Positions 2,707-47,157 of a stretch of DNA of 64,000 nucleotides are shown piece after piece. The first letter of the stretch is position 1. Each line of letters opens with the position of its first letter. The notes beneath the pieces were generated by a model. The model searched no databases. It was not told the origin of the DNA and saw nothing but the letters and a program-made list of their open reading frames with translations. The translations under genes were made by a program, and so were the position numbers. The stretch comes from Promethearchaeota archaeon (GTDB taxonomy: Archaea; Asgardarchaeota; Thorarchaeia; Thorarchaeales; Thorarchaeaceae), in the NCBI GenBank assembly GCA_014730275.1, contig WJIL01000068.1, forward strand, positions 87,527 to 151,526, in the 5' to 3' direction.

Positions 2707-2717
2707 ATCAGAAGCCG

Positions 2718-2758
2718 CCTCAACTAGGGATACTGACCCTTTGCGGTCCTAGTTGAGG
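2718..2758. promoter_or_regulatory. Perfect 11-bp inverted repeat CCTCAACTAGG-N19-CCTAGTTGAGG in the atpB 5' leader and downstream of the membrane-protein gene stop. Hairpin or operator.
   Basis: Arms at 2718-2728 and 2748-2758 are exact reverse complements. It lies 12 nt upstream of the atpB start codon. Confidence 0.4.
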
Positions 2759-2793
2759 TATAGTTTTAAGAGTTGCGAACTACCCAGTTGAAA

Positions 2794-3303: not shown

Positions 3304-3337
3304 GGGAAGCTATCTATAGAGAGGAATATAACGGCCC

Positions 3338-3895: not shown

Positions 3896-3950
3896 GTCAT
3901 TGTATCAGGCAAGGGTAGATAAACACACCACGTATGTTCTTAGTGGATAA

Positions 3951-16977: not shown

Positions 16978-17031
16978 GAAACCATAAATATGAGTGACAA
17001 ATGTTCATGATAAAGACAGAGGTCTGATAGA

Positions 17032-17760
17032 TTGAAGATTGCAAAGGAGATATTCGAAACCGCGCGCGAAGAAGGAAGGACCTTCGTTTTGGAACACGAA
17101 GCCAAGAGAATCATGCAGGAGTATGATCTTCCAATACCTGAATTCAGTACGGCTGCAACAGCTGAGGAAGCTGTCAAGGAAAGCAAAAAGATAGGATATC
17201 CAGTAGTTTTGAAGATTCTATCAAAAGATGTACTCCATAAATCCGATGCGGGCGGAGTCAAAGTCAATTTGAATAGTGATGATGAGGTCAAAGAGGCCTT
17301 CCAAGAAATCATGGAGAATGCCAAGAAATATGGGAAAGAGCAAGACCACGAGGTGGATCTCAGCAGGGGCGTATTCATTTCAGACTTCGCAGAAGAAGGA
17401 ACTGAAGTGATTGTAGGGGTTACAGAAGATCCCCAGTTTGGGCATGCACTGATGTTTGGCCTTGGGGGCATATTCGTAGAAGTCCTCAAGGACGTGACCT
17501 TCCGATTGATTCCGCTAACAGAAGTAGATGCACGCGAAATGGTCAAGGAGATAAAGGCCTCCAAGATTCTTGAAGGAGTTAGGGGTGAGCCTCCAAGGGA
17601 TGTTGATGCCCTAGTTGAGATAATCATGGCAGTCTCTAAAATGGTAGAAGAGAATCCAGAGATATCGGAACTGGACTGCAACCCCACATTTGTGTACGCT
17701 GAAGGGAAAGGGGCCACGGTCGTGGATGCCCGGATTCTGATAGAGGAAGAACAGAACTAA
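17032..17760 (+). CDS. acdB: Acetyl-CoA synthetase (ADP-forming), beta subunit (ATP-grasp)
   Basis: ATP-grasp pattern (GYPVVLKILSKDVLHKSDAGGVKVNL), directly downstream of acdA. Confidence 0.85.
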   Translation: MKIAKEIFETAREEGRTFVLEHEAKRIMQEYDLPIPEFSTAATAEEAVKESKKIGYPVVLKILSKDVLHKSDAGGVKVNLNSDDEVKEAFQEIMENAKKYGKEQDHEVDLSRGVFISDFAEEGTEVIVGVTEDPQFGHALMFGLGGIFVEVLKDVTFRLIPLTEVDAREMVKEIKASKILEGVRGEPPRDVDALVEIIMAVSKMVEENPEISELDCNPTFVYAEGKGATVVDARILIEEEQN

Positions 17761-20273: not shown

Positions 20274-20837
20274 TTACTTGTACATTCGCTTGAGTATTAC
20301 CTCTCGTGCTATAGCTTGGAACGCCCTCTTAACTCCAACGCCCTGTATAGCAATAGTTTCATACACGGGTATATTCCCGCCTAATCCTAAAACATCGAGC
20401 ATCTCGTCTCGTGACATCCTGTTTGGAAGATCTCTCTTGTTGAGCATGATTACTATGGGGACCTCACGCTGTAAAGCATCGCCCATAAACATCTTCAGCT
20501 CTTCAAAGCTCTCCGCGTTCTCATCTCTCTGATCTGGAGATGAATCAGCAACGAAGAGGATGCCATCGGTACCTTGGAGGACGACCTTTCTCTGATGCCG
20601 ATGTCGCTTTTGGCCAGCCACTGTAAATACGTCAAACAGAACCCGGCCGCCTGCACTCATGGGTACATAGTCGAAGAAGAGTGTTCGGTTTGTCTCATCT
20701 TCAATAGATGTGAAATCACCCTTTTGTAGTCCTTCAACTTTACCGTACAACCATCGTAGTGCTGTGGTCTTTCCACCTAGGCTTGGGCCATAGAATACGA
20801 TTTTCAGATGAATGCGACCTTTATCGTCCTTCCGCAT
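20274..20837 (-). CDS. mglA: MglA-like small Ras-superfamily GTPase
   Basis: KIVFYGPSLGGKTT (G1), TLFFDYVPMS (switch I), FTVAGQ (G3), NKRDLPN (G4), GVGV. Near-collinear with Myxococcus MglA motifs. Confidence 0.85.
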   Translation of the reverse strand: MRKDDKGRIHLKIVFYGPSLGGKTTALRWLYGKVEGLQKGDFTSIEDETNRTLFFDYVPMSAGGRVLFDVFTVAGQKRHRHQRKVVLQGTDGILFVADSSPDQRDENAESFEELKMFMGDALQREVPIVIMLNKRDLPNRMSRDEMLDVLGLGGNIPVYETIAIQGVGVKRAFQAIAREVILKRMYK

Positions 20838-22036: not shown

Positions 22037-23668
22037 TTACTCTTCGTCCTCATCGTCATCTTTCAGTAGCGCCCGAGAATTTCGCCTCATCTGTGCAAAG
22101 CTCTTTGTTGATGCTAAATCGGCAGCTGCTGATGGCCCCGCGCGAGGTGCTTTTTTCATCATCTCTTGGGTCTGCTGAAGTTCTTCCTCTTCAGAAGCCA
22201 GAGCTTCATCTACCCGCCTTATGTTGTTTTCAATCGATGAGGGTGCTTGTTTCGCGCGGCTTGTCATAGCTTTCCTGAAGGATGCTATTCTCTTTGCGCC
22301 TTCGCTGTGTTTTCCACGGAAAGCTTCTTCACCAGCCTTCTGGGTGGTGAATGTAGCAGCAAGCTTCGGATCAAAACTTGCCATGATTTCATCCTCGTCT
22401 TTTGTGACATTCAAACGGGTCGTTACAGAACGAATACGCCTTGCTCCACTCTTATCGAGGTACTCCACCTGTAGCTGTACAGGAATGCTATCAGTATCGA
22501 GTTCCTCTTCTGGTTCCATTTCAAAGTAGAGTTCGTGATTTTCTCCTACAACGCCCACTTTTCCGGACTTCTTTGATTTCATTTCATCAATCACTGCACG
22601 TGACATACCTGATGCATCCTTGACACGTACACCGGGTGGAGTTATCATGCGGACAGTAACATCTCGTGCAATGGAGGAAGCACCCGCAAGGGCAGACATA
22701 CTTCTGTCAAGCTCATTTGGCGTTACATAGTACATCTGACCGCCTGTTGCCTCTGGAAGGAGGCCAAGCGTCTTAAGCTCCATTCCAGAACCCCCGGCGA
22801 TTCCCACCACATCAAAAGCTGTACCAATATCACGAAACATCTGCCCCATCTGTTCATAGTAATCAGTTGCGGGTGTAACCTGGAATCCTTCCAACGAGCC
22901 AACACCTTCATTGGCAAGACCATCTGTAAGAAGTAAAAGCCGCCCAATATCTCGATGTTTCGCAATAGTATATCCCATAGCAACCGCGGGGCCTAATGCA
23001 GTACCTCCTTTCGGGCCCAAGTCTGCTACGTGCCTTTTTAACCGGTCACTATTTTTCCCGACAGCGACCATTTTCACGTCATCCAATAGAGTCCGACTTG
23101 TTTCTAATATCCGGTTCAAACTGGGGAAAGCCTCCCTTGGAAGATGGACAGCTTCTCCAGTCAGCGGATTTCTATAGGCGACCGAGCTTTCAAACTCAAT
23201 TATGCCGAATAGAGTCTCTGGTGAATTCGCTGCCAGAGAGTCAATTGAATTCCGTAGACTTCTTTTAACGGCCTCAAGATTTGCGCCACCCATCGAGCCA
23301 GATACGTCTATGAGCGCTAAGAAAGCGCCACTGGCAGTTGACACTTCTTGTTCAGTAGATTCATCTTCGGAAGGGGGTGGTGCAATCAGAAAGTCGGATT
23401 CATCTCCTGCTGTAATAATCTCGCCTTCTACGACATTGAGAGTTCCACAGAACGGACAGATGAAATGTTTTCCAACTTTGGGATCTTCCACAATCTGGTC
23501 AGTACTGATAAGATATCCTCCACAACGTTCACAAGCAATTGGTTTTCCTACGATTTTCCTAACCTCGTGGGTAAGACCGCTGAATTCCACACGCATGACA
23601 TAGGGGATATCGTCTAGAATTTTCTTTGAGGCCGGAAATGAGTTAGATGTGGGCTTGAGTAGGGGCAT
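22037..23668 (-). CDS. Zinc-ribbon + von Willebrand A (vWA) + beta-sandwich protein with an acidic disordered tail. Resembles the Sec23/24 zinc finger and trunk.
   Basis: C-x2-C-x21-C-x2-C zinc finger (CERCGG...CPFCG). MIDAS DVSGSM about 30 aa later. LFGIIEFESSV resembles the Sec23 trunk VGLITFGRMV block. Beta-rich segment, then an E/D-rich tail. Confidence 0.55.
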   Translation of the reverse strand: MPLLKPTSNSFPASKKILDDIPYVMRVEFSGLTHEVRKIVGKPIACERCGGYLISTDQIVEDPKVGKHFICPFCGTLNVVEGEIITAGDESDFLIAPPPSEDESTEQEVSTASGAFLALIDVSGSMGGANLEAVKRSLRNSIDSLAANSPETLFGIIEFESSVAYRNPLTGEAVHLPREAFPSLNRILETSRTLLDDVKMVAVGKNSDRLKRHVADLGPKGGTALGPAVAMGYTIAKHRDIGRLLLLTDGLANEGVGSLEGFQVTPATDYYEQMGQMFRDIGTAFDVVGIAGGSGMELKTLGLLPEATGGQMYYVTPNELDRSMSALAGASSIARDVTVRMITPPGVRVKDASGMSRAVIDEMKSKKSGKVGVVGENHELYFEMEPEEELDTDSIPVQLQVEYLDKSGARRIRSVTTRLNVTKDEDEIMASFDPKLAATFTTQKAGEEAFRGKHSEGAKRIASFRKAMTSRAKQAPSSIENNIRRVDEALASEEEELQQTQEMMKKAPRAGPSAAADLASTKSFAQMRRNSRALLKDDDEDEE

Positions 23669-32034: not shown

Positions 32035-32598
32035 ATGAAACTACAGGAGAACTGTTCAGTGGAAGACCGGTCAGTGGATGAAATTCAAACCAAAATCAGC
32101 GATTTGGATTTAGACTATATGCGTGGATTGGTTTCTGAAGAAGAATACAAAGCTAAGATGGAAGAATTGCAGGAGAAGTTGGAGGCAGCAGGAGGGAAAC
32201 CTTCTGGTCTCTCTGCAGCACAAAAAGCCAAAGAGTCTCTCAAATCGCCACCAGAAGAGGAATTCACTCAGCAACGAGGAGTGGCAACAACAGACCCGGT
32301 TACAGCCGTCAAAAGAGCTGTACAGAAGTTCAGAAGGATTCCAATAGAACGGATTGCCCAAGAAGCTGGTGTGAGCGCAATCAACACAGCTAAGATATTA
32401 ACCGATCTACTGGATGGACGAGAGTTATCTGGGCGGATAGATCGTGAAAGGGGAGATCTGCTATTGGGAACCGGTAGTGGCCCTGCACCGAAAAACATCG
32501 TAGTTTGCCCATTCTGTGGTCGAAAGATGGACAAGATAGCAGTACGGGGAGAAACCGTCACCTGTAATATGTGTCAAGAATCTTTTGTCATTTCATAG
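32035..32598 (+). CDS. Hypothetical protein with a C-terminal zinc ribbon
   Basis: 187 aa, helical N-terminus, C-terminal CPFCG...CNMC. Confidence 0.45.
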   Translation: MKLQENCSVEDRSVDEIQTKISDLDLDYMRGLVSEEEYKAKMEELQEKLEAAGGKPSGLSAAQKAKESLKSPPEEEFTQQRGVATTDPVTAVKRAVQKFRRIPIERIAQEAGVSAINTAKILTDLLDGRELSGRIDRERGDLLLGTGSGPAPKNIVVCPFCGRKMDKIAVRGETVTCNMCQESFVIS

Positions 32599-32674: not shown

Positions 32675-34243
32675 TTATTCTCCCTGGCTTCCTTTTCTAT
32701 AGGATTCGAGCAGCAAATCTGGTAGATATAAGGCCTCGATTCCTGTGCCTTGCAGAAGGTCTTTCAGTTGAATTGTACAGAAGGGGCATTCAGTAGTTAC
32801 AAGCTCTGCCCCCGTGTCCAATATATACTCCCGTTTTGTATCAGCGATTTTCATAGAGAGATCCCGTTGTCCAGCTCGTACACCACCACCAGCCCCACAA
32901 CACCGATTCTTGTATGGGTCGTCAATATACTCAATTCCTGGGACCATCTTGAGAATTTCTAGCGGCTCATTGACAACTCCTTGACCTCTGCCCAAGTGGC
33001 AGGGCTCATGATATGTGACTTTCAAATCGAGTTCACCTTTTGGTGGGACCATGTTTTCTTTACCCAGCACCTCAATCAGATATTCGGTAAGGTCCATAAC
33101 CTTGAACTTTGGAGGCTCTCCGCGTTCTTCCTCAATGAGTGGATAGTGGTCTTCCCTCATCGTCTTTCCGCAGCCAGCACATGCAACAATGACTGTGTCG
33201 AAATCCCATTTTTCCATAGCATCTTCAAAAATCTGTGTGGTTTTTCTCGCTGCTTCTTTAGCAGTCTCCATGGCACCCGTTCTGAAGGCAGGACTTGCGC
33301 AGCACCATTGTTCTTTGGGAACCACGACATCGACATTGTTCTGATTAAGAACCTCGATTAGTGCCTCACCCGTATTCTGCATTCTATAATCAATAAGACA
33401 TCCTGTGAAGAACGCTACACGCCCCTGAGGGTTCTCTACGAAGAATTCCTCTGTCTCTATTTCTTCAAGAAGGGGAGTTTCCTTCCGAGATACTGAGCGG
33501 CCGGTTTCCTGCATACGTTCCACGAAAGTCTGTGCCCCCTCTGGGAGTGGATAACCAGCATCTACTGCTTTCGCTCGTAGAAGTTCTACCGCTAGACTTG
33601 GTATCTTAATGTCCTTCGGACAAATGTCCTCACAAAGCTTGCAGGTTGTACAGTAATACACGGATTCGTCAAGAGCCATCGATACTCTGTCTTCAACATC
33701 TCGTGGATCGAGCTCAAGTCGTGCAAGCTGCCGGATAATCATTGGTCCTGCATAATCCCAAGTTTCCTTGATGACCGGACAGTTTGCAATACAAGCGCTA
33801 CATTCGATACATTTCCGAATCTCACGCAGCTTTTCAATCTCACTGGAGTGAATTATCTCAGGGCGTTCTGGTCTTTTATCTCGTGATACATATGGACGAG
33901 TCCGTCGCAGCCTCCCAATAGTTTGTTCTAAATCAACTACCAGGTCCTTTATGACAGGCATCTTATCCATCGGCTCGATAACCAGTTCCTCATCAGGATC
34001 GACCTTTGTCCTGCAGGCAATACGGGCAATTGTGTTTACTGTAACTGCACAGGAACCGCATTGTCCGCCTCTGCATTCCCAGCGGAATGCCAGACTCGAG
34101 TCGTATTTGTCTTGGATGTAAAGAAGTACATCCAGCACGGTCATACCCGGTTCGAATTCTACATCATACTCTTCAAAGTATGGGGCATCATCGACATCAG
34201 GGTTATATCGCTGAACTTTCGTCTTGACAGTTTCCTTGGACAT
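32675..34243 (-). CDS. tfrB: Thiol:fumarate reductase subunit B-like: a succinate dehydrogenase/fumarate reductase Fe-S subunit fused to HdrD-like CCG domains
   Basis: N-terminal [2Fe-2S] (CRGGQCGSC) plus two ferredoxin-type clusters (CIECSACIANCP, CTTCKLCEDICP). C-terminal two Cys-rich CCG motifs (CCASPAF, CCGAGGG). Confidence 0.8.
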   Translation of the reverse strand: MSKETVKTKVQRYNPDVDDAPYFEEYDVEFEPGMTVLDVLLYIQDKYDSSLAFRWECRGGQCGSCAVTVNTIARIACRTKVDPDEELVIEPMDKMPVIKDLVVDLEQTIGRLRRTRPYVSRDKRPERPEIIHSSEIEKLREIRKCIECSACIANCPVIKETWDYAGPMIIRQLARLELDPRDVEDRVSMALDESVYYCTTCKLCEDICPKDIKIPSLAVELLRAKAVDAGYPLPEGAQTFVERMQETGRSVSRKETPLLEEIETEEFFVENPQGRVAFFTGCLIDYRMQNTGEALIEVLNQNNVDVVVPKEQWCCASPAFRTGAMETAKEAARKTTQIFEDAMEKWDFDTVIVACAGCGKTMREDHYPLIEEERGEPPKFKVMDLTEYLIEVLGKENMVPPKGELDLKVTYHEPCHLGRGQGVVNEPLEILKMVPGIEYIDDPYKNRCCGAGGGVRAGQRDLSMKIADTKREYILDTGAELVTTECPFCTIQLKDLLQGTGIEALYLPDLLLESYRKGSQGE

Positions 34244-34259
34244 CGTTATTGGTCCTCCT

Positions 34260-35981
34260 TCATGGTGGCGTGATGCGAGTTATCACGAGATCTTCCTTCC
34301 GGAGCTCGGGTTCCCCGTCTTCGCCTTTTCGAATGACAATATTGTAATAGCCCTTATCATTGCGGTCTGCGTCACTGCGGTAGTGAGCACCTCTGCTGCC
34401 CTTTCGCATGAAAGCAGCTTCAGCGACTAAGCGAGAAGTAATCACCATGTGGCCAAATTCAATAGCCTGATGCCATCCCGGATTGAATCGCTTGATTGGT
34501 ACATCTACTTTGATGTTGGGAACAACCTCTTCTTCAATGCGCTTCAGATCCTCAACAGCTTCTGCGAGACCTTCATCATCTCTGAAAATCTGCACCTTAT
34601 CCCACATCAGACTGGTCAATTCGTCTCGGGCATCAGCTGGCGAAATTCCTTCCTTCCGCCGCAACATCGTCTCAACCCGGCTGAATTCCCCTTTGACATC
34701 GTCAATATCCATTCCGGGGAGACCATGTTCGTTCGCGAATTTGGCTGCATTCTCACCTGCCAGGGCACCGAAAACTTGAGTGTCAGCTAAAGCATTACCA
34801 CCCAAACGGTTTCCACCGTGAAGTCCGCCCATACATTCACCTGCAGCATACAGGCCAGGTAATGTCGATGAAGCGTTCGCATCTACCTTGATGCCGCCCA
34901 TCAAGTGATGAGCCGTGGGTGATACTTGCATAGGCTCTTCGCGGATATCTACTCCAGCGTCACCAAACTGCTCAATCATACTCTCAAGCCGGTATTCGAT
35001 GATTCGCTTTGGTAGATGAGCGATACTGAGGTAAACCCCTCCATCAGGAGATCCACGTCCTTCTCTGACTTCAGTCATGATAGACCTCGCCACTTGGTCT
35101 CGACCAGCCAGCTCCATAACCTTCGGATAGTACTTGTCCATGAAGCGTTCCCCTTCACTATTCAGGAGTATACCACCTTCGCCCCGAACGGCCTCGGTAA
35201 CGAGTCTCCCCTTTGCAGATTCAGGCTTAATCATGCCAGTCGGGTGAAATTGGCACATTTCCATATCAATCATTTCGCAGCCTGCTTCATAGGCCATAGC
35301 ATAACCATCACCGACATCGAGGGCTGCATTGCTTGTGACCTTGAAAATACGACCTGCACCACCTGTGGCCATAACAATTGATTTTGCTCGGAAGACAACA
35401 TAGTCCCCGTACTTGAGATCAATAGCAGTAACTCCTGCAGCTCTGCCGTCCTTCACCAGGATTTTAGTAGCAAACATTTCGTCGAAAACGCGAACAGAGC
35501 TCTTTCGAATCGCTTCGGTAAGTGTGACCATGATTTCTGAGCCTGTGCGGTCTGAAGCATAGGCAGTTCTCCGATAGGTCTGTTTTCCGAATGGGCGCTG
35601 TGCGATTTTGCCCTGTGGAGTTCTATCGAATACTGCACCCATTTCTTCGAGATCGTATATTCGGTCTGGCGCTTCATCAACAAGTATCTCGACTAATTCT
35701 TGGTTGTTGATGTAATTTCCGCCCACAACTGTGTCTTTGAAATGAACTTCAGGATCATCATCAGGATCTACATTTCCGATGGCTACATTCATACCACCTT
35801 CGGCCATGGATGTGTGGGCCTTGCCAAGCATCTCCTTGCTAAGCATAATCACGTCAGCATTGTGCTGTTCTGCTTCAATAGCGGCACGACAGCCAGCACC
35901 ACCAGCACCTACAACCAAAACATCGCATAATATTGTCTTATAACTAGGTGAATCTTCCAAACAAAAGCCTCCGATGGCCAA
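34260..35981 (-). CDS. tfrA: Thiol:fumarate reductase / fumarate reductase flavoprotein subunit
   Basis: VLVVGAGGAGCRAA FAD fold, QFHPTG, HHLMGG, RLGGNALAD. SdhA/FrdA family. Confidence 0.85.
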   Translation of the reverse strand: MAIGGFCLEDSPSYKTILCDVLVVGAGGAGCRAAIEAEQHNADVIMLSKEMLGKAHTSMAEGGMNVAIGNVDPDDDPEVHFKDTVVGGNYINNQELVEILVDEAPDRIYDLEEMGAVFDRTPQGKIAQRPFGKQTYRRTAYASDRTGSEIMVTLTEAIRKSSVRVFDEMFATKILVKDGRAAGVTAIDLKYGDYVVFRAKSIVMATGGAGRIFKVTSNAALDVGDGYAMAYEAGCEMIDMEMCQFHPTGMIKPESAKGRLVTEAVRGEGGILLNSEGERFMDKYYPKVMELAGRDQVARSIMTEVREGRGSPDGGVYLSIAHLPKRIIEYRLESMIEQFGDAGVDIREEPMQVSPTAHHLMGGIKVDANASSTLPGLYAAGECMGGLHGGNRLGGNALADTQVFGALAGENAAKFANEHGLPGMDIDDVKGEFSRVETMLRRKEGISPADARDELTSLMWDKVQIFRDDEGLAEAVEDLKRIEEEVVPNIKVDVPIKRFNPGWHQAIEFGHMVITSRLVAEAAFMRKGSRGAHYRSDADRNDKGYYNIVIRKGEDGEPELRKEDLVITRITPP

Positions 35982-36015
35982 TCGTTTTCACTTTGACATC
36001 GGTCTATGGAGGCGC

Positions 36016-36022
36016 TATATAA
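36016..36022 (-). promoter_or_regulatory. TATA-like box (TATATAA) about 35 nt upstream of the tfrA start. Suggests tfrAB has its own promoter.
   Basis: Seen in sequence. The palindromic hairpin GGGACAGTCCC at about 36055-36065 follows the stop of the upstream sdhA-like gene. Confidence 0.3.
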
Positions 36023-36118
36023 CTTGTAAGGTATGGGAGGACTATCCCCAGAAGACAGATTCAATGGGGACAGTCCCGCACGTTCCTCTTGCAAAGGTCT
36101 ATGCAGGAACGTAGAGTG

Positions 36119-37831
36119 TCAGGCAAATAGGTCGAGGCGCCGCTTGAACGGTTTCTCTTTGCCGTAGCCAGTGGCTTTCATGGTATTCTGTCCGAGATAG
36201 TTGGGGAGGATGATGGGGGTCCTACGCTCAGTCTCTATACCAGCTTTCTCCAGTTCCTTAGAATACCTATCGAGATGGGCAAGAGAAAGATCAGATTTCT
36301 TTGGCATTTTTGCCTTCTTCGCATGCTTGGCCGCGCTTATGCCGGACTTGCGACCAAATACAACGATTTCCAGCCATGAGTTGCCCATCAGACGGTTGTC
36401 GCCATGAACACCACCCGTGGTTTCACCAGAGGCGAAGAGGTTCTCAATCGGGCTGCCGTCGGGTTTCACAACCTGAGTCTCGCGATTGATTGCGATTCCA
36501 CCATTCTGATAGTGGAGTGTGGGATGCACCAAAACAGGGTATTCTGTCGGGTCAATACCAAAACGTGTGAAAAGGCGGTAGATAGCAGCAAGGCCGTCTT
36601 CGAGTGCTCCTTCACCGCGCTTCTCATCAATCATCGGGGTATCGAGCCAAATCCCATCTTGACCCGTGGGAGTAGTAATACCTCTTCCTTCCCCGATTTC
36701 TTTCAATTCTGCCGCAGATTCGACGTCTCGTGGCTCCAATGGATAGATGAAAGCCTCGCCATCATCATTAACCAGCTGGGCTCCCATACTTCTGCACTTT
36801 TCTGTGACTAGCAAACCAACGATTTGCTCAGGGTACGCCGCACCAGTGGGATGATATTGGGTTGATTGCATGTGGATGATATCTGCGCCCACTCTATAAG
36901 CTGAAACCAATCCGTCACAGGTCGCTGCATAGTGGTTAGTGGTAGGAAAGCCAGCAACATGTAGCCGACCAAAGCCACCTGTTGCAATGACGGTAGCCTT
37001 TGAACGTACTACATGATATTCTTCGGTTTCCATGTTCCATAGTAGTCCACCAGCGACAGCACCACTCCCATCCGTTAGAAGAGATACGGTGGGACAAAAC
37101 TCAAGGGTGTTAACATCGCGGCTAAGCGCTTCATCCATAAGGACTCTGGTCAGTTCAAGGCCGGTATAGTCCTTGCAACTGTGTATTCGCTTCCGTGAAG
37201 CACCTCCTGCCATGAGAAGCTGCATATCTCCATCCTGTTCCTTATCGAATGTAGCTCCCAGTGATTCAAGCCATTTGATTGCGAGTGGGCCCTTCTCAAC
37301 TAGGTCTCGAGCCAGCGGCCGGTCATTTGTCCAGTGGCCCCCAGACAAGACATCAAGCCAGTGAATCATTGGAGAATCATCCTCTCCATCGCACGCCTGT
37401 ATGCCGCCTTGGCTCATTTTGCTGTTAGAGTCACCCAATCGAAGGGCAGTCGAAACAAGGATGTCTTCCATTGCTATCCCTTCGTTATTCGCCCAGAGGA
37501 TAGCAGAAAGACCGGCTCCACCAGTGCCAATCACAAGAAGCTCCGTGCTGTACTCTACTTCGGACAAATCTACATCAGCAGGATCCACACGGGGATAGGC
37601 CTCCAAGACATTTGCAACCTCTGTTGGCACGACTTTCCCTTTTGCCGGGCCGATAGCTAGTTCCCGGAAGAAAGCAGGATCCGATTTCCTATAGTCGGGA
37701 TGCCATTGTCTCAGAAGCTCGTCGGATTCCTCCTCCGGAATCCTGTCGAACTCCATGTCTTTGCGTTCATCTCTGGTAGCATTGACTCGCCTTACTGATT
37801 CCATCATATGTTCCGGATATGGGTCTGTCAT
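36119..37831 (-). CDS. Second SdhA/FrdA-family flavoprotein with an N-terminal extension of about 100 aa
   Basis: LLVIGTGGAGLSA at about residue 100, HYAATCDG, QYHPTG, HPTLHYQNGG, DNRLMGNSWLEIVVFGR. Last gene of the hdr-mvh unit. Confidence 0.8.
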   Translation of the reverse strand: MTDPYPEHMMESVRRVNATRDERKDMEFDRIPEEESDELLRQWHPDYRKSDPAFFRELAIGPAKGKVVPTEVANVLEAYPRVDPADVDLSEVEYSTELLVIGTGGAGLSAILWANNEGIAMEDILVSTALRLGDSNSKMSQGGIQACDGEDDSPMIHWLDVLSGGHWTNDRPLARDLVEKGPLAIKWLESLGATFDKEQDGDMQLLMAGGASRKRIHSCKDYTGLELTRVLMDEALSRDVNTLEFCPTVSLLTDGSGAVAGGLLWNMETEEYHVVRSKATVIATGGFGRLHVAGFPTTNHYAATCDGLVSAYRVGADIIHMQSTQYHPTGAAYPEQIVGLLVTEKCRSMGAQLVNDDGEAFIYPLEPRDVESAAELKEIGEGRGITTPTGQDGIWLDTPMIDEKRGEGALEDGLAAIYRLFTRFGIDPTEYPVLVHPTLHYQNGGIAINRETQVVKPDGSPIENLFASGETTGGVHGDNRLMGNSWLEIVVFGRKSGISAAKHAKKAKMPKKSDLSLAHLDRYSKELEKAGIETERRTPIILPNYLGQNTMKATGYGKEKPFKRRLDLFA

Positions 37832-38577
37832 TATTCTTCACCGCCATTCTGGTCGAGACTGAATTCATTGCCAGCGCGCACATCGAGGAAGAGCTCCCGA
37901 ATCCGATCTTCAGGTAGTTCAATTAGTTCATCCATCTGATCATCATATTGGCCTTCCTCAATTTCACTAACACGTTGGGTAACATGTTCCGCCTTTGGCT
38001 GGATATATTTTCCATAAAGCCGGCGAACAAGTTGAAACACATGGTAGTGGGTGATTTCCGCAGGACATCTTGCAGAGCAAGCACCACAGGATATACAATC
38101 AAAACTCAGGTCGGCTGCCTTCTCAAGATCACCCCGCCGTATCGCTTGGATTGCCCTCATTGGCTCCAAATTCTGTGGACAAGCTTGTGTGCAGGTATTA
38201 CAAGAAACGCATCGGGTTATCTCAGGAAATATGCGGATAACTTCCTCAGAAGTGGCCTCTAGTTCATCTAAGTCCCATTCGGGTTTCCGAGCGGGAACAA
38301 AAGGTAACTGAACAAGATACATACCATCTTCCACTTTTGTTTGACATGCTAGGTCGATATAGAGTTTGTAATCATCCTTTTTTCTGTAAATCGTGGTACA
38401 AGCACCACAATAACCACCCCGACAACCCACACCTCTAATGAGCCGATAGCCTGCATATTCTTGTGCCTGCATTATCGTAAGCTCACTTGGCACTTCGTAT
38501 GGTTTTCCCATTATGTAGATTGTTGCCATTTCACTCTCGGGTCGGTCTTTCTTCTCAACTTCTTGATTTTGTGACAT
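37831..38577 (-). CDS. SdhB/FrdB-like iron-sulfur subunit (unfused)
   Basis: [2Fe-2S] CRGGYCGAC, plus CVSCNTCTQACP and CISCGACSARCP ferredoxin motifs. Start overlaps the stop of the flavoprotein gene. Confidence 0.8.
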   Translation of the reverse strand: MSQNQEVEKKDRPESEMATIYIMGKPYEVPSELTIMQAQEYAGYRLIRGVGCRGGYCGACTTIYRKKDDYKLYIDLACQTKVEDGMYLVQLPFVPARKPEWDLDELEATSEEVIRIFPEITRCVSCNTCTQACPQNLEPMRAIQAIRRGDLEKAADLSFDCISCGACSARCPAEITHYHVFQLVRRLYGKYIQPKAEHVTQRVSEIEEGQYDDQMDELIELPEDRIRELFLDVRAGNEFSLDQNGGEE

Positions 38578-38581: not shown

Positions 38582-39445
38582 TCAACTCCCTTGTAGATTC
38601 TTCAAAACCAATTCTTCCCTTTCGGGTGATAAGTATGAATCAACTTCCAAAGCCATTGCAAGAACCTGTGTGAAGAATAGAACGGGCACATCCTTGCCCA
38701 AGTTCTCCACTCCAAGTCCAAGATTGTATGTACACAGAGGGCATGGAGAAATAATCAGGTCTGCCCCCGCTGAAACAGCGGATTCAACTATCGCTTTGCT
38801 TCGAATCTCTACAATTTCTTTTCTGAAAGCAGCGTGATAGTTTCCGCAGCATTCCATCTTGTAGGGGTAGTCAACTGATGTAGCCCCTATTGCACGGATG
38901 AATTCTTCAATAATCGTAGGGCTTTCACGTTTGTCAACAGCAACATCCTCAGGCCTCAATAGAGCACAACCATAATAGGGTGCAATCTTCAAATCTGAAA
39001 GCGGATTAGTGATTTTGTCGAAGATTGTGTCAAAGCCTATCTTATCTCGGAGTAATTGGAGGAAATGAGAAACCTCAAGATTTCCTTTGTAATTTGGTGC
39101 GTCGTCTATGTAATCATTCACGTTCTCACGGGTATCTTGTTCTGTTTTCAATGCAATATTAGTTCGTTTCAGAACATTGTAACACATAGAGCACAGAGTA
39201 GTAATCTCATTACCTGCTGTTGAACTAAGCTCTTCTTGTGCATCTATCAAGGTACGAACTGCTCCAAGATGGCGCATAATGTTATCAGAAAGACTGAAGT
39301 TAACACCACAGCAGTTCCACTCAGGTATCTCTTCCAGTTCTATGTCCAGCTTCTTACAAACCTCTAGAGCACTCTTTTCGAACTCAGGATAGCTATTTCT
39401 AAGACTACAACCGGGATAGTAGATTACGCGTATCACGATTACCAC
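38582..39445 (-). CDS. hdrB: Heterodisulfide reductase subunit B-like (two CCG domains)
   Basis: CCGVNFS... and ...CCGNYHA CCG-domain cysteine patterns. 287 aa. Confidence 0.85.
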   Translation of the reverse strand: MVIVIRVIYYPGCSLRNSYPEFEKSALEVCKKLDIELEEIPEWNCCGVNFSLSDNIMRHLGAVRTLIDAQEELSSTAGNEITTLCSMCYNVLKRTNIALKTEQDTRENVNDYIDDAPNYKGNLEVSHFLQLLRDKIGFDTIFDKITNPLSDLKIAPYYGCALLRPEDVAVDKRESPTIIEEFIRAIGATSVDYPYKMECCGNYHAAFRKEIVEIRSKAIVESAVSAGADLIISPCPLCTYNLGLGVENLGKDVPVLFFTQVLAMALEVDSYLSPEREELVLKNLQGS

Positions 39446-39810
39446 GTCAGTTTCTGTGCTGCTGCGGTCAAAGCAATTTGCGGCAAATCCTTGAGATTCT
39501 CTATCTTTCTCAAATCTATTGTTTCATAACCCCGCTCTCGGATTCTAAGCTCTCTAAGTGACTCCATTACGGCTGCAACATCGACACCACGTGGACATCG
39601 CACCGAACAAGTAAAACAACTAGCACAAATCCATGGGGTCTCATTGTCAAGCACGCTTTCGTCACCCCGTTGGATATACATGAGTACTTGATGCGGCAAT
39701 AGATCCATATGAGCAGTAAAAAGGCAACCTGCAGAACACTTGCCACACTGATAGCAAGCATCTACATTCACGCCAGATATCTCACTTATCCGTTCTTCCA
39801 ATTCATTCAA
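39439..39810 (-). CDS. hdrC: Heterodisulfide reductase subunit C-like (2x[4Fe-4S])
   Basis: CYQCGKCSAGC and CASCFTCSVRCP motifs. 123 aa. Overlaps the hdrB start. Confidence 0.75.
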   Translation of the reverse strand: MNELEERISEISGVNVDACYQCGKCSAGCLFTAHMDLLPHQVLMYIQRGDESVLDNETPWICASCFTCSVRCPRGVDVAAVMESLRELRIRERGYETIDLRKIENLKDLPQIALTAAAQKLTW

Positions 39811-40373
39811 GCTGATTCACCTGTTAATTCGCATTGTATCAAATTGAGCAAGTTGTTAATTCCTGTTTCAAGTTCATAGGTAATTTCGTTGGTCATCTCT
39901 GGGTTATTGATACACAGACCGTATACAATTACACGGCTAGGAAATCGTAGAGGATAGAGTTCTCTGTAAATCTTCAAAACATCAAGGATACTAGCTGTAT
40001 GCGGAGTAAGCATGCTTAGGGGTTTCTGATCAGCGAGCCCGGTAAACCGGATAATCTCGCCAGATTCTCTATCTGTACCTACAAAAGCGTCTATCAAAAC
40101 AGCTCGGTCATAGCCTAAGAACCGCTCTGCAACAGAGAAGGGTGAAGAGGATGACCATGCCACCTCAACGGTGCTAGGCAGGTTGCATTCATTAAGCTGT
40201 CGGGCGGCTTGAATGCCTGCAGCGTCATCTCCGAATATCGGGTTACCCCATCCATAGATTATGGTCTTCTGCTCTTGAATAGGTTTGGTTACGGTAACTG
40301 CTAATTCGTTCCCCTCCTTATTCGCCGTATCACATTTCCATCGGAATCGCGGAATACTAGTTCCAATGGGCAT
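39807..40373 (-). CDS. Hydrogenase maturation endopeptidase (HycI/FrhD/HyaD family)
   Basis: GWGNPIFGDDAAGI motif. Located immediately after mvhA, which carries a C-terminal extension beyond DPCLSCSTH. Confidence 0.8.
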   Translation of the reverse strand: MPIGTSIPRFRWKCDTANKEGNELAVTVTKPIQEQKTIIYGWGNPIFGDDAAGIQAARQLNECNLPSTVEVAWSSSSPFSVAERFLGYDRAVLIDAFVGTDRESGEIIRFTGLADQKPLSMLTPHTASILDVLKIYRELYPLRFPSRVIVYGLCINNPEMTNEITYELETGINNLLNLIQCELTGESA

Positions 40374-41788
40374 CTACCAGGCAAAGAGTGAGTTGAACAT
40401 GAAAGACAGGGATCATAGGCCCGATATGCCATCTCAACGCGGTTCAGAATTCCTTCAGAAACATCGCCATTGTGCACCAAAGCCTCAGCTGCTTTTCTCA
40501 CGTCCAAGGATATTGCTGCATTATTCATGGTAGTAGGTACTATCAAGTTGGCTGAAGTGATTCGTCCCTTTTTATCAGCCTTGTAGTGATGAATCAATGT
40601 GCCCCGTGGAGCTTCAACACACCCAACACCCTCGCCTGTGAAACTACCATCCTTACTTCGGGGAGTTCCATGAATGATGTCGGGATCATCAAGTATCTCA
40701 AGCATCCGCTCAATGTTGTATACTGATTCAATTAATCGAGCCCAATTATAACCTAGAGTAGCATGAGCGGGTTTGCCTAGCGTATCAATGAATTCCTCGT
40801 ATGCCTCCTGAGCAAGAGGGGTTGGCATTCCATCTGTCACGTTTAACCGAGGTAAGGCATTCACTCGGTAGATGCCACTCTCTTCTCCATCAGCAAAACC
40901 CTTCCAACCGATGTTTTTCAGGTAGGGGAATTTCGAATAGCTCCATGGTTGGCTGACTTCCTCTATGTGGTCAAGGTAATCATTCGGTGAGAATGTGAAA
41001 CTATCATCTCCGCTAGGATTGATGACTTTCAGATTTCCGTCATAGAAATTCATCTGGTCGTTTTCATCAACGAGCCCCATATAGTAGGTTTCAAGCCGAT
41101 ACATGTTACCGAAGAACAAATCATGATACTTCTCGTTCTCGATAATATTTGATTTGAAGAAATCGTGGAAATCTAGCGTAAATTCCAAGATTTCCTTTGA
41201 CATCTCTTCAATAGTGTTTCTCTCTTCCTCGGTTATGAGTCGAGATACTCCTCCAGGTAGGGCGATGACCGGATGAACAGCCTTCCCTGCTATGATTTCT
41301 TGGATTTTTTCTGCATCAGCATGGTACTTGAGAGCATCTTTTGCTATGTCCGGGTGTTCCTGAAGCAATCCAATGATATTCCGAGTTGAGGGTTCACTAT
41401 TTTCGGAGAGAAAGAAGTCAGGGGAAGCTAAAACGAAGAAGTGTAGAAGATGTGAATGCAAATTGTGAGCATTATAGGATAACTCCCGTAGCTTCTTGCT
41501 AGCAGGTGTTGGCTCTAATCCGAAAAGCTGATCCATAGCTTTGGCAGCAGACATATGATGAGCCCAAGAACAAACACCACAAACCCGTGATGCAATCCGT
41601 GGTACTTCTTCTGCTTGCCGTCCCTTTAGAAAGCCTTCAAAGCCACGGTAATCAAGCACTTGGAAGTAGGCATTCTTCACATTGCCTTCATCATCAAGAA
41701 TGATATTGATTTTCCCCTCACCCTCAAGACGGGTACAAGGTTGAATCCTGATGATTTCATCGTCAGATCCTATGTCTAGTTCGGTCAT
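40301..41788 (-). CDS. mvhA: [NiFe] hydrogenase large subunit, F420-non-reducing (Mvh/Vhu type)
   Basis: N-terminal RVCGVCSWAH and C-terminal DPCLSCSTH nickel-binding motifs, followed by a cleavable extension of about 28 aa. Confidence 0.9.
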   Translation of the reverse strand: MTELDIGSDDEIIRIQPCTRLEGEGKINIILDDEGNVKNAYFQVLDYRGFEGFLKGRQAEEVPRIASRVCGVCSWAHHMSAAKAMDQLFGLEPTPASKKLRELSYNAHNLHSHLLHFFVLASPDFFLSENSEPSTRNIIGLLQEHPDIAKDALKYHADAEKIQEIIAGKAVHPVIALPGGVSRLITEEERNTIEEMSKEILEFTLDFHDFFKSNIIENEKYHDLFFGNMYRLETYYMGLVDENDQMNFYDGNLKVINPSGDDSFTFSPNDYLDHIEEVSQPWSYSKFPYLKNIGWKGFADGEESGIYRVNALPRLNVTDGMPTPLAQEAYEEFIDTLGKPAHATLGYNWARLIESVYNIERMLEILDDPDIIHGTPRSKDGSFTGEGVGCVEAPRGTLIHHYKADKKGRITSANLIVPTTMNNAAISLDVRKAAEALVHNGDVSEGILNRVEMAYRAYDPCLSCSTHSLPGRCPLELVFRDSDGNVIRRIRRGTN

Positions 41789-41794: not shown

Positions 41795-42775
41795 TCATTT
41801 CTCCTGATGTTTTCTGTTGATTATTGCCACTGGAAGTGCAAACCTGTAGAAGAGTCCAACCGGATCGATAAACCCTTCCGACAGAAGACGCATGAGCTCC
41901 TCTTCACTGATTTGTTTCTCTTTGCCCAACATAATCGATGAAGCTATACTCGAAAGGAATTTTGTTCCTTGGTCGCGTATCTTTGGCGTTGGACCAAAGC
42001 ATCCACGGCAGGGCATATTCCTATACGTGCACCGGGGTTCGTCTCCACATCCAGCCCGCGTTACTGGACCAAGACAGAGAACACCCTGACTCAAAAAGCA
42101 CTCCTCTTCGTTTAAGTCGCTCTCATGAACTCTCATTACTTTGTCAATCGAGATTTTGTCAGGCTTTTCTCGTTCGCAGTACTCACATACTGTCCCTTCT
42201 TTCGCAAGGAAAAGAGCATCCGGAATGTTGCCATTCTCACGGTAGTCTCTTACGAAATCAATCAAATCAATTACAGATTGTACAGGGGGAGGACAGCCAG
42301 GAACAAATACATCGAATTCTACCAAATCTGCGGGAGAAGATGTATAATCCCGTAGCTCGGGCATTTTCAGTTCTTCGATTGTGATTTCTTCAAGGCTAGG
42401 AACACCTTCAGCTCTCGTATTAGGAGCGTTGGAATATGCAGTTGTAAGAAGTGATTCCTTCGTTTCTACATTTCCTAAACCAGGAATCCCTCCGTAACAT
42501 GAACAGGTACCGAAGGCAACAAGGACATCAGATTTTTCCTCCAGAAGACGCAGAACAGTCTCATGTTCATCCGTTCTGACTGCTCCGAAGTACACACCAA
42601 CGTCAATGTTTTTGACAGCCTCTAATTGTTCAATCTTGCCATCTACAACAGCTGGCCAGTACACAATCTCTGCAATCTCAGCCAAATCCGCGAGTTTCGT
42701 ACCTACATCTGTGAAAGCAACATCACAGCCGCCACAGATTGATCCATATCCTACAGCCAGTTTTGCTTTCTTCAT
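41795..42775 (-). CDS. mvhG: [NiFe] hydrogenase small subunit (Mvh/Vhu type)
   Basis: GSICGGC proximal cluster motif, GTCSCYGG, and overall small-subunit Cys pattern. Confidence 0.9.
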   Translation of the reverse strand: MKKAKLAVGYGSICGGCDVAFTDVGTKLADLAEIAEIVYWPAVVDGKIEQLEAVKNIDVGVYFGAVRTDEHETVLRLLEEKSDVLVAFGTCSCYGGIPGLGNVETKESLLTTAYSNAPNTRAEGVPSLEEITIEELKMPELRDYTSSPADLVEFDVFVPGCPPPVQSVIDLIDFVRDYRENGNIPDALFLAKEGTVCEYCEREKPDKISIDKVMRVHESDLNEEECFLSQGVLCLGPVTRAGCGDEPRCTYRNMPCRGCFGPTPKIRDQGTKFLSSIASSIMLGKEKQISEEELMRLLSEGFIDPVGLFYRFALPVAIINRKHQEK

Positions 42776-43200
42776 TGCACTACCTCACTCTGTTCCATGA
42801 CAAAGGGTCCAAGATCACGCAATTCATCAGTAAATGCACTAATTGTCTCAGCGAATTTTCGGCCCTCGCTAGCGCTAATCCAGTCTAAACGGACACGCTT
42901 CGGATTCACTCCCATCTGCTTTAGGAAAGTTTTGAGAACAGTAATCCGTTTGAAGGCCTGATAATTTCCGCGAATATAGTGACAGTCATTGGGAGTGTGA
43001 CATCCTGCGATGAGAACACCATCGGATTCTCGTAGTGCCTCAAGGATATGAGACAAGTCGATCCTTCCAGTACACGGAAAGCGCACTGGAGTCACGGTTG
43101 GGGGATACTTAATTCGACTTGTTCCCGCCATATCGGCACCAGCATATCCGCACCATTTGCACAAGAAAGCAGTTATCTTTGGTTCGAAAGTCATCATCAT
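42772..43200 (-). CDS. mvhD: Methyl-viologen-reducing hydrogenase delta subunit
   Basis: 142 aa. FLCKWCGY...PCTGR...AGCHTPNDCHY MvhD Cys pattern. Overlaps the hdrA stop. Confidence 0.9.
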   Translation of the reverse strand: MMMTFEPKITAFLCKWCGYAGADMAGTSRIKYPPTVTPVRFPCTGRIDLSHILEALRESDGVLIAGCHTPNDCHYIRGNYQAFKRITVLKTFLKQMGVNPKRVRLDWISASEGRKFAETISAFTDELRDLGPFVMEQSEVVQ

Positions 43201-45182: not shown

Positions 45183-45586
45183 TTATCTCTCCTAGAATCA
45201 GTAGGGTAAACTCTTGAAAACGGTCGTTTAGTCGGAAAGGTTCTTTTGAACTGAGCAACAACGGGAAATGCCTTCGTATTTTACGAGAGCCCCACACCCA
45301 CTAAATAACTCTGCCGAATCGGCAGAAAAAAAACGATAGTAAACCGATTCTAAGGGCAGAATTTTGCTTTTTTGGTTTTGTTCTGCTTTGCGCATTGGGC
45401 GAGGAGACGAACACATACGTCCAGCGAAGGTTAAATTAGGTCAAATTGCAGAGGATTTGATATCGGGGGTTCAATATCATCGAAAGGGAAGACTTGGCTC
45501 TATTGTTTGCATTGCTTGTACTTGCATTAGTGGCCTTGTATGGCGTATCAGTTCCGATTTTGCGAGCACTTGCAGATTGAGAAAGC

Positions 45587-45659: not shown

Positions 45660-46268
45660 CTACTCTTCTACACCAATTATCGAGTACACTTCTGCCTTTT
45701 TTGTACTGACTTGGTCATCTGCATCATCATGCAGGCTGTTACCATGGGAGTCCATAGTTACCATGAGTGGTCCGAATTCCTCGGCTGTGATTACCCATAA
45801 AGCTTCAGGCATCCCAAGATCTGACCATTCATAAGCTCGAACCTCCTTTAGCCCTCGAGCAGCAAGAGCTCCACAACCTCCAGTAAAACTGCAGTAAACC
45901 GCTCCAACCTCCTTTAGAGCCGCCAGTGTTCTATCAGCCATACCACCTTTCCCGATGATAACACGAGCTTTATAGTTCCGTAAGAACTCATCCTCGAAGA
46001 TTTCCATTCGAATACTCGTCGTTGGGCCAGCGGAAACAATATTCCATTCTCCGTCCTTCTTCTGCGCAACTGGACCTACGTGATAGACAACACTGCCTTC
46101 AAATTCGACAGGGGGTTTCTCTCCCTTTTCATACATCTCAAGCGCGCGCTCGTGGGCCTCATCTCTAGCAGTATAGACGTGTTCACCGCTCACATAGATG
46201 ACATCGCCAACCTTTAGCTTGCGAGCTTCTTCTTCTGAAATCGGTGTAGTTAGATGATACTCTGCCAT
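45660..46268 (-). CDS. fumB: Class I (Fe-S) fumarate hydratase, beta subunit
   Basis: 202 aa. CSFTGGCGALAARGL and overall FumB/TtdB similarity. Confidence 0.85.
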   Translation of the reverse strand: MAEYHLTTPISEEEARKLKVGDVIYVSGEHVYTARDEAHERALEMYEKGEKPPVEFEGSVVYHVGPVAQKKDGEWNIVSAGPTTSIRMEIFEDEFLRNYKARVIIGKGGMADRTLAALKEVGAVYCSFTGGCGALAARGLKEVRAYEWSDLGMPEALWVITAEEFGPLMVTMDSHGNSLHDDADDQVSTKKAEVYSIIGVEE

Positions 46269-46269: not shown

Positions 46270-47157
46270 TTACTTACCCTCCAATGGATGCGTGATATAT
46301 TCTACTTTGAGATCCTTCGAAATAGTAGCTGTGCTCCGTCTCGCAGCCCAGCATTGTACGGCAACTCCAACTGGAAGGCTAGCCGGATGGCGCATAGCAT
46401 AGTCCACCTTTACATCGAGAACAGTGGTCTTACCACCAAGCCCCATTGGGCCGATGCCTGTTGCGTTCAAAGCCTCAATAAGTTCCTCCTCGATTTCTGC
46501 TACTTCAGGTTCGGGGTGCCTTTGATTAAGTGGACGTAACAACTGCTTCTTTGCTATCTTCAAACTAATATCGGCCCCACCGCCAATTCCAACACCGATG
46601 ATATTCGGGGAGCATGCCTTGCCCATGTAATCCATGGCATTATCAACAACTAGCTTCTTTACACCTGCTAGACCGACACCGGGTTTCAGCATTCCAACAA
46701 TGCTTACATTCTCACTACCTCCACCTTTAGGAAATGCAGTAATCTCCAGGGAATCACCAGGTACTAATTCCCAGTTGAGCCATGGGATTTTCTCACCAGT
46801 GTTGTCTCCCGAATTACCTCCAACGATAGGATTCACGGCATTGGGTCTGAGTGGAACGTTCTCAGTTGCCTTCCTCGTCGCTTTCGCTAATGCATCCTCT
46901 ACTTCACTCAAGTAAGGGAAATCGTATCCTGCCTTCAAATAAAAAATCATTATGCCAGTATCTTGGCACATGGGTACACCAGTTGATGCGATTTCCAGAT
47001 TCTTGAGGATAGCAGACAATTGCGTCTTCGCGTTTTCGTTTGTCTCACGCTCATATGCTTCGCGAAGCGCCGTTTCAACTTCATCGGGCAACTCCGTTGC
47101 AGCTTTCGTGAGCAAACGAACTGTAGCGTCTGTGATTACCTGCTGCGGGTCCTTCAT
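46270..47157 (-). CDS. fumA: Class I (Fe-S) fumarate hydratase, alpha subunit
   Basis: 295 aa. GVPMCQDTG and FumA/TtdA pattern. 1-nt gap to fumB. Confidence 0.85.
   Translation of the reverse strand: MKDPQQVITDATVRLLTKAATELPDEVETALREAYERETNENAKTQLSAILKNLEIASTGVPMCQDTGIMIFYLKAGYDFPYLSEVEDALAKATRKATENVPLRPNAVNPIVGGNSGDNTGEKIPWLNWELVPGDSLEITAFPKGGGSENVSIVGMLKPGVGLAGVKKLVVDNAMDYMGKACSPNIIGVGIGGGADISLKIAKKQLLRPLNQRHPEPEVAEIEEELIEALNATGIGPMGLGGKTTVLDVKVDYAMRHPASLPVGVAVQCWAARRSTATISKDLKVEYITHPLEGK

Follow-up and report, generated by a model that had tools for sequence, protein, structure and literature searches.

The thiol:fumarate reductase TfrAB has been described from Methanothermobacter (Heim et al. 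1998, cited in PMC8163825 and PMC11237513). A tfrA–tfrB pair of this type lies in the stretch of DNA analysed here, 64,000 nucleotides (nt) from a Promethearchaeota archaeon (the window), next to a cassette of hdr, mvh and reductase-like genes which is our second subject. The window and Methanothermobacter enzymes both have two soluble subunits with a FrdA-like TfrA and no membrane anchor, and both TfrB proteins carry motifs for one [2Fe-2S] and two [4Fe-4S] clusters, followed at the C-terminal end by two CCG motifs. The window differs in its host, an Asgard archaeon of Thorarchaeia type that is not a methanogen, in the linkage of tfrAB to the class I fumarase genes fumAB, and in a TfrA that falls just under the equivalog cutoff. 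The best explanation, to which we give a probability of roughly 60%, is that tfrAB and fumAB form an old reductive unit and that a second, Hdr-linked reductase has been inserted between them.

The cassette has described relatives of its own. It shares six subunit types, functional order and intact [NiFe] and CCG motifs with the methanogen complex MvhADG-HdrABC (PDB 5ODC; Wagner et al. 2017, as cited in PMC9723716). Unlike in that complex, HdrA, HdrB and HdrC of the cassette score well below the equivalog cutoffs, HdrC has 123 amino acids, and genes for an iron–sulfur (Fe-S) protein and a flavoprotein are packed translationally behind hdrB. In the “succinate operon” of Pseudoclostridium thermosuccinogenes (PMC7282089), a fumarase stands with Flx-Hdr and a two-gene fumarate reductase, and coupling of succinate formation to ferredoxin reduction was proposed. 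The cassette follows the same logic (fumarase, HdrABC, MvhD/FlxD, two-gene reductase), as do the bacterial loci that we found; its input module is MvhAG, for H2, instead of FlxABC, for reduced nicotinamide adenine dinucleotide (NADH), and it adds the adjoining TfrAB. In tubeworm symbionts, tfrAB and korABCD of reductive tricarboxylic acid (TCA) cycle clusters are interspersed with flxABCD-hdrABC (PMC6315080), and in Culexarchaeia SdhA is found beside HdrBC and a hydrogenase (PMC9723716).

Two further systems are relevant at the protein level. The type-E SdhABE enzymes and methylmenaquinol:fumarate reductase (MFR) consist of a flavoprotein, a protein with [2Fe-2S] and two [4Fe-4S] motifs and a CCG protein that act together; they correspond, in unfused form, to TfrAB and likewise to the Fe-S protein plus HdrB of the cassette. 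However, type-E succinate:quinone reductases (SQR) and MFR are membrane-associated and quinone-linked, and the window proteins score far under the MFR cutoffs. Shewanella flavocytochrome c3, with non-covalent flavin adenine dinucleotide (FAD) and one-way fumarate reduction, ranks among the better matches to the cassette flavoprotein in both sequence and structure, but its electrons enter through a haem domain, compared with a separate Fe-S protein plus Hdr in the cassette.

The TfrAB pair and its upstream signals

The original prediction described a fused SdhB+HdrD(CCG) protein of 522 residues as TfrB and a flavoprotein beside it as TfrA, and open reading frames (ORFs), Pfam and the TfrB equivalog agree with it on both. 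TfrB has the Pfam architecture Fer2_3, Fer4_8 (4Fe-4S dicluster) and two CCG domains, and passes the NCBIfam TfrB equivalog NF004898 with 533.6 bits (cutoff 385). Residues 5–220 match E. coli FrdB (E 3.5e-36) and residues 276–493 match HdrB (E 3.7e-14). The SdhB/FrdB-like half holds the [2Fe-2S] ligands C57/62/65/77 and two CxxCxxCxxxCP motifs (C145–155 and C198–208); the HdrB-like half holds two CCG motifs (C282/314/315/355/358 and C415/448/449/486/489), whose spacings of 31/39 and 32/36 fit the pattern CX31-39CCX35-36CXXC. All of these cluster-ligand cysteines (22/22) are invariant in an alignment of 11 sequences with 45–98% identity.

An exact-sequence look-up with the window TfrB returned no identical entry. 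The nearest homologues are metagenomic (98% identity), followed by those of Thorarchaeota, Hermodarchaeota and Lokiarchaeota (71–80%) and by remoter ones from Atabeyarchaeia, Hodarchaeota and Bathyarchaeia (45–51%); many Asgard homologues are already named TfrB by NCBI and JGI. A metagenome scan with the TfrB alignment was driven by the CCG patterns and collected mainly unrelated CCG proteins, only about a dozen loci being true TfrB. One metagenomic contig (L091, 8322–20186) carries two tfrA–tfrB pairs about 7 kilobases (kb) apart, 35–40% identical to the window proteins. Directly downstream of tfrB in the window, a 187-residue ORF (32035–32598, plus strand) has a C-terminal CxxC...CxxC pair and no Pfam match; in the loci L168 and L169, that position is taken by a gene with a weak PCI-domain match.

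TfrA matches Pfam FAD_binding_2 and Succ_DH_flav_C and passes the broader sdhA_frdA model TIGR01812 (569 bits, cutoff 567.3). It keeps the histidine at the covalent-FAD position (GKAHT), and with the motifs HPT, RGEGG, HxxMGG and NRLGGN its fumarate site is complete. Judged from the predicted proteins, this pair is a TfrAB-type fumarate reductase that is soluble and has no membrane anchor. It is a routine enzyme, and the cassette pair, which lies just outside the coordinates flagged in the original prediction, is the more interesting object.

If tfrA is started at TTG 35981, as in the listed ORF, the gap of 137 bp to the upstream gene that had been reported is correct. The start is more probably TTG 35960, giving 566 residues, because the GGAGG in front of it is conserved in all aligned Thorarchaeia (Thor) loci (four, plus two close relatives) and TTG 35981 is absent in L169. 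The longer CGGAGG is invariant in the same loci and precedes the called start in three remoter Thor loci, and gene calls in L165 and L169 also give a TfrA of 566 residues. The TATA-like signal proposed earlier for tfrAB is present as TTATATA, in a block of about 45 nt that is 100% identical in three species, the surrounding DNA being 83–89% identical. TATA-like elements stand at similar spacing in L168, L167 and L001. We consider that tfrAB very probably has its own putative promoter; no oligo-T terminator was found after the cassette flavoprotein gene, and read-through into tfrAB may occur.

An insertion between fumB and tfrA

Thirteen co-oriented genes form an unbroken run on the minus strand from fumA to tfrB (47157 down to 32675), in the order fumA-fumB-hdrA-mvhD-mvhG-mvhA-protease-hdrC-hdrB-FeS-flavoprotein and, after a gap, tfrA-tfrB. 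Pfam and NCBIfam place the class I fumarase where it had been expected, at the far end. The genes fumA-fumB-tfrA-tfrB are contiguous in four other Thorarchaeia-like loci (L001, from the complete genome CP070761.1, L084, L167 and L168) and also in the remoter L086. In the three loci with flanks listed (L001, L167 and L168), these match the window, SMC/ScpAB/AIRS/S8e/HypA lying at one end and peptidase A24/NFACT/CBS/amidohydrolase at the other. The fumB–tfrA interval measures about 9.7 kb in the window (45660 to 35927) versus 440 bp in L001, and the inserted cassette consists of nine genes, encoding HdrA, MvhD, MvhG, MvhA, the protease, HdrC, HdrB, the Fe-S protein and the flavoprotein.

The same 13-gene order is found in L164/L165 (89.4% nt identity to the window) and in L169/L170 (82.8% over 14.6 kb). 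Since these are independent assemblies of two relatives, the arrangement is no assembly artefact and is older than these species. In other Thor metagenome-assembled genomes (MAGs; L002/L003, L171 and L069), the nine-gene cassette is located elsewhere, among unrelated neighbours and without tfrAB; its proteins are 61–82% identical to those of the window, the protease only 44–45%. This divergence is similar to that of the Fum and Tfr proteins, and relocation of the cassette within Thorarchaeia is for that reason more likely than recent import. We found no direct or inverted repeats flanking the cassette and no sign of a mobile element. Intergenic alignments against L001, L002, L167, L168 and L084 gave only short matches at chance level, and exact breakpoints are not definable.

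The adjacency of cassette and tfrAB is a lineage-specific insertion into an older four-gene unit, in one small clade. The idea of two fumarate-reductase systems in tandem thus survives in part: a second reductase-like pair, attached to Hdr/Mvh genes, does lie upstream of tfrAB, but it belongs to a distinct family and came to its place by insertion, not as an ancestral tandem.

Some smaller features accompany the insertion site. Between fumB and the next gene lies an antisense hydrophobic micro-ORF of about 28–39 residues (45461–45580, plus strand; probable start TTG 45494), and L001, L167 and L168 have comparable micro-ORFs (…LLVLAIVVLVLMIAYGVTIPF… and similar) at the corresponding position; in the window, the cassette was inserted on the tfrA side of it. 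Between the window and L164, which is its closest relative, HdrB is 87% and the protease-like ORF 86% identical (38582–40373), the other cassette proteins 94–98%.

The putative Hdr-linked reductase family and its neighbourhoods

The pair upstream of tfrA had been taken for standard unfused SdhA and SdhB, an assignment that we can rule out. The flavoprotein matches Pfam FAD_binding_2 alone, lacks Succ_DH_flav_C and scores far under every NCBIfam Sdh, Frd and NadB cutoff. In an alignment of 16 family sequences from archaeal and bacterial phyla, an invariant asparagine, Asn136, replaces the covalent-FAD histidine. The dicarboxylate-site residues H327-P-T329, E344, R347, H440 and R480 are invariant in the same alignment, and the best structural match of the flavoprotein model is E. 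coli FrdA (E 4.9e-27, TM-score 0.60). The family also has a conserved N-terminal extension of about 95 residues. It comprises at least 593 loci in species-representative genomes, and the window flavoprotein is 48–58% identical to archaeal and bacterial members. The archaeal ones come from Methanomethylicia, Culexarchaeia, Thermoplasmata, Bathyarchaeia, Heimdall-/Njordarchaeia and Thermococci, and the bacterial ones from Bipolaricaulota, WOR-3, Cloacimonadota, Aminicenantes, Clostridia and others. The region of the flavoprotein gene (36001–38000) has the highest G+C content of the window, 0.505, compared with 0.43–0.49 elsewhere.

The Fe-S partner carries [2Fe-2S] ligands C52/57/60/78 and two CxxCxxCxxxCP motifs (C123–133 and C161–171), 12 invariant cysteines overall, and with it the pair shows the family make-up of a flavoprotein of about 550 residues and a partner of about 230–250 residues with [2Fe-2S] and two [4Fe-4S] clusters. 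Against TIGR00384 it scores 38.8 bits, below the cutoff of 88. Foldseek with the predicted model returned RnfC, HdrC and SdhB, all at TM-scores of about 0.2–0.3, which is ambiguous.

The cassette Hdr proteins share the methanogen MvhADG-HdrABC architecture but belong to a different subfamily. HdrA reaches 825.5 bits with the HdrA2 model (cutoff 1100), HdrC 59.7 bits (cutoff 160), and HdrB 155.5 bits with CoB_CoM_SS_B (cutoff 345) and 128.8 bits with the MFR SdhE model (cutoff 500). The L164 orthologue of MvhA matches Pfam NiFeSe_Hases/HoxH. The protease-like ORF has no Pfam match at 1e-5; it overlaps the 3′ end of mvhA and its start is uncertain, but Thor and Heimdall loci have it at the same position.

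All window proteins were compared with 80 loci of the flavoprotein family, 55 of which have at least 8 kb of upstream sequence. The Fe-S gene lies directly upstream of the flavoprotein gene in 78/80. Among the 55, HdrB and HdrC are present in 40, HdrA in 41, MvhD in 37 and MvhA with MvhG in 11; 13 of them have a class I fumarase. The bacterial loci L019 and L044 have no MvhAG, and between MvhD and the Fe-S gene they encode a pair of Fe-S proteins together with an NAD/FAD-binding protein, which we read as a putative Flx-type NADH input module (FlxA/B/C-like) in the place of MvhAG. In L066 (Thermodesulfobacteriota, 1–21626), fumAB, hdrCBA-flx, the Fe-S/flavoprotein pair, sucCD, korABG and a type-E sdhA-sdhB-sdhE run in one direction. 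By its genes this cluster looks like a complete reductive TCA branch, and it is another, independent example in which an Hdr-linked reductase lies near a CCG-type one. In L019 (Eubacteriales MAG, 1171–3896), three 2-oxoacid:ferredoxin oxidoreductase subunits are encoded between the cassette hdrB and hdrA, a layout that hints at use of reduced ferredoxin by the neighbouring synthase.

Proposed roles and alternative explanations

No transmembrane helix was predicted in any of the 13 proteins from fumA to tfrB and, therefore, the locus points to cytoplasmic redox chemistry and not to fumarate respiration. Of the “fumarate-respiration / reductive-branch island” suggested originally, the second half can be retained, since a reductive malate–fumarate–succinate role fits fumAB-tfrAB. 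The respiratory half is rejected on the missing helices and on the flanks, whose genes are housekeeping or Asgard signature genes and keep a conserved order.

From gene identities, motifs, linkage, the insertion and the promoter footprint we infer the substrates, direction, thiol, complex formation and bifurcation proposed here. Together, fumAB and tfrAB would convert malate to fumarate and on to succinate in the cytoplasm. In TfrAB, a thiol pair, which in methanogens consists of coenzyme M (CoM-SH) and coenzyme B (CoB-SH), would donate electrons to the HdrB-like CCG half, and the three SdhB-like clusters would relay them to the FAD of TfrA. In an ancestor of the small clade, the nine-gene cassette became placed between fumB and the tfrA promoter. 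Its MvhAG would oxidise H2 and its HdrA would split the electron pairs, sending one branch to ferredoxin and the other through HdrC/HdrB and the Fe-S protein to a non-covalent FAD and fumarate. The cassette pair most likely serves an electron-bifurcating complex as its high-potential acceptor arm, in the overall reaction 2 H2 + fumarate + oxidised ferredoxin → succinate + reduced ferredoxin. The standard potentials of H2 (−414 mV) and fumarate (+33 mV) give ample drive for the uphill ferredoxin branch and would make the reverse, from succinate plus reduced ferredoxin to H2, unfavourable. In Frd and Sdh variants that have lost covalent FAD, succinate oxidation is abolished and fumarate reduction is kept, and E. 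coli FrdA H44 variants indicate that the histidine is needed for succinate oxidation. Asn136 in the cassette flavoprotein fits a one-way reductase, whereas TfrA retains the histidine.

Two routes from H2 to succinate could then exist, one direct, via the cassette, and another via TfrAB, with Mvh-Hdr re-reducing the TfrAB disulfide. That TfrAB works with Hdr-Mvh in Asgard archaea was proposed before (PMC9723677, PMC9635834). We regard such coupling as optional at best, because most loci that carry one of the two systems do not have the other close by. A broader and more tentative version, which we find possible but on balance doubtful, is that fumarate, via the Fe-S/flavoprotein arm, is the high-potential acceptor of orphan Mvh-Hdr in non-methanogens in the place of heterodisulfide, and that TfrAB adjoins the cassette as a cooperating partner without CoM/CoB. 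This would apply to the present subfamily of Hdr complexes, which occurs in Asgard, TACK and Thermoplasmatota archaea as well as in many anaerobic bacteria. The cooperation might run via a thiol, a protein disulfide or direct docking, and would be H2-driven and ferredoxin-generating. The locus is a concrete candidate answer to the question of what Hdr-Mvh complexes reduce in organisms that do not make methane. The conserved linkage of HdrBC/HdrA to a reductase-like pair, to fumarase and, once, to sucCD and 2-oxoglutarate synthase suggests that fumarate is reduced with H2 or NADH and that reduced ferredoxin is gained at the same time. If true, this would bear on how the hydrogen metabolism of Asgard archaea is modelled and on how reductive TCA branches are powered in anaerobes.

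Several observations weigh against our preferred explanation, an old fumAB-tfrAB unit with an inserted Hdr-linked reductase. In sequence and fold searches, the Fe-S partner is no closer to SdhB than to generic ferredoxin modules, HdrC and RnfC; it is not demonstrably an SdhB homologue, and the likeness appears to lie in cluster architecture only. TfrA scores 682.9 bits with the TfrA equivalog NF004900, narrowly below the cutoff of 718. Most Thor loci with tfrAB have no cassette nearby, and a true TfrB is nearby in at most 1/55 cassette loci. The likeness to the P. thermosuccinogenes reductase is one of gene order, family membership being inferred from that order. The literature leaves CoM/CoB biosynthesis in Asgard archaea open (PMC8163825), and our searches of it found no biochemical characterisation of any member of the cassette flavoprotein family or of an Asgard TfrAB. 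We also found no characterised bifurcating fumarate reductase in the literature.

The substrate of the cassette pair could be different from fumarate, for example L-aspartate or some other dicarboxylate or enoate. TfrAB would then be the only fumarate reductase, and the reading of two systems would fail. The distance from the curated Sdh, Frd and NadB models, the missing Sdh C-terminal domain and a partner that is not clearly SdhB leave room for this, and the flavoprotein superfamily also includes aspartate oxidase and urocanate reductase. We nevertheless consider it unlikely given the invariant HPT, E, R, H and R of the dicarboxylate site and FrdA as the best structural match. The neighbourhoods argue in the same direction: class I fumarase adjoins the cassette in the 13 loci counted above, from many phyla, sucCD and 2-oxoglutarate synthase adjoin it in L066, and the operon layout is matched in a succinate-producing Clostridium (PMC7282089).

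No more probable is an oxidative direction, with TfrAB as a soluble succinate dehydrogenase (e.g., in amino-acid or propionate breakdown) and Hdr-Mvh reversed into a confurcating complex that evolves H2. TfrA does keep the histidine that succinate oxidation needs. Moreover, an H2-evolving Hdr-Mvh was proposed in Asgard archaea (PMC9723677), and succinate oxidation coupled to H2 was suggested for the Culexarchaeia HdrBC/SdhA hydrogenase cluster (PMC9723716). By our own calculation, however, the succinate/fumarate couple at +33 mV would need a large input of energy to reduce protons or a disulfide at about −140 mV. The asparagine of the cassette flavoprotein favours reduction only, and a reductive branch is what the conserved neighbours fumarase, sucCD and korABG would suggest. 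A membrane-anchored succinate dehydrogenase, raised in the original prediction as a competing identity, finds no anchor among the 13 proteins, although one could lie elsewhere in the genome.

Slightly less probable still is a monotopic, quinone-linked TfrAB, as in type-E SQR or MFR, where the CCG half would serve as an SdhE-like anchor and no thiol would be involved. Type-E CCG proteins are homologous to the C-terminal half of TfrB, the cassette HdrB also matches the MFR SdhE model, and an unfused SdhA-SdhB-SdhE adjoins the cassette in L066. On the other hand, TfrAB has no transmembrane or obviously amphipathic anchor, TfrB passes its own equivalog and not the MFR models (103.6 bits, far short of 600), and there are no quinone-related genes within the 64-kb window.

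Finally, the two sets could have been simple recent tandem duplicates, being adjacent, co-oriented and of one superfamily, but this is next to impossible and we reject it: their adjacency arose by insertion, their architectures differ, the A subunits are 33% identical over 413 residues and the B subunits 27% over 166, TfrA scores 449.5 bits against mycobacterial SdhA (M. smegmatis Sdh1) versus 192 bits against the neighbouring flavoprotein, and the latter is nearer to its bacterial orthologues (48–58%) than to TfrA. With 20% identity between the C-terminal half of TfrB and the cassette HdrB as well, TfrAB and the cassette pair are, on these comparisons, ancient paralogues.

The coordinates are collected in the table below, and the remainder of the window adds a few observations on the host.

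Table. Features of the fumA–tfrB run, with window coordinates
Feature	Coordinates	Strand	Basis or remark
tfrB, 522-residue Fe-S subunit	32675..34243	-	Pfam, NCBIfam TfrB, alignment, FrdB/HdrB matches
tfrA flavoprotein, 566 residues from TTG 35960 (more probable start)	34260..35960	-	listed ORF extends to TTG 35981, 573 residues
Shine-Dalgarno-like GGAGG, 7 nt 5′ of TTG 35960	35968..35972	-	conserved across aligned Thor loci
TATA-like box TTATATA, putative tfrAB promoter	36016..36022	-	inside perfectly conserved block of about 45 nt
Hdr-linked family flavoprotein, 570 residues	36119..37831	-	Pfam, NCBIfam, alignment, structural match
Fe-S partner of cassette flavoprotein, 248 residues	37831..38577	-	12 invariant Cys, conserved adjacency
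HdrB-like, two CCG domains	38582..39445	-	Pfam, NCBIfam scores
Short HdrC-like protein with two [4Fe-4S], 123 residues	39439..39810	-	Pfam, NCBIfam
Putative hydrogenase maturation protease, GWGNPxxGDD motif	39807..40300	-	motif and conserved position
MvhA-like [NiFe] hydrogenase large subunit	40301..41788	-	RVCGVC...H and DPCLSCSTH motifs; orthologue Pfam in L164
MvhG-like hydrogenase small subunit	41795..42775	-	Oxidored_q6 on orthologue
MvhD (FlpD)	42772..43200	-	orthologue annotation
HdrA, 661 residues	43197..45182	-	Pfam, NCBIfam HdrA2 model
Class I fumarate hydratase beta subunit (fumB)	45660..46268	-	Pfam, NCBIfam
Class I fumarate hydratase alpha subunit (fumA)	46270..47157	-	NF004885, 325 bits > 276 cutoff

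An Rfam scan of the window returned tRNA-Glu only. The one other enzyme linked to CoA and acids in the window is an ADP-forming acyl-CoA synthetase, alpha and beta (Succ_CoA_lig and ATP-grasp_5; 15535–17760, plus strand), with no sucCD, kor or mdh genes near it. Two minus-strand genes for Asgard eukaryotic signature proteins are found in conserved synteny with SMC/ScpAB: one encodes an Arf/Ras-family small GTPase (20274–20837), the other a protein that matches the Sec23/Sec24 trunk and beta-sandwich domains weakly (22037–23668). Beyond the fumarase, at 57516–59816 on the minus strand, the window encodes a 766-residue DUF3160 protein (E 6.7e-178).

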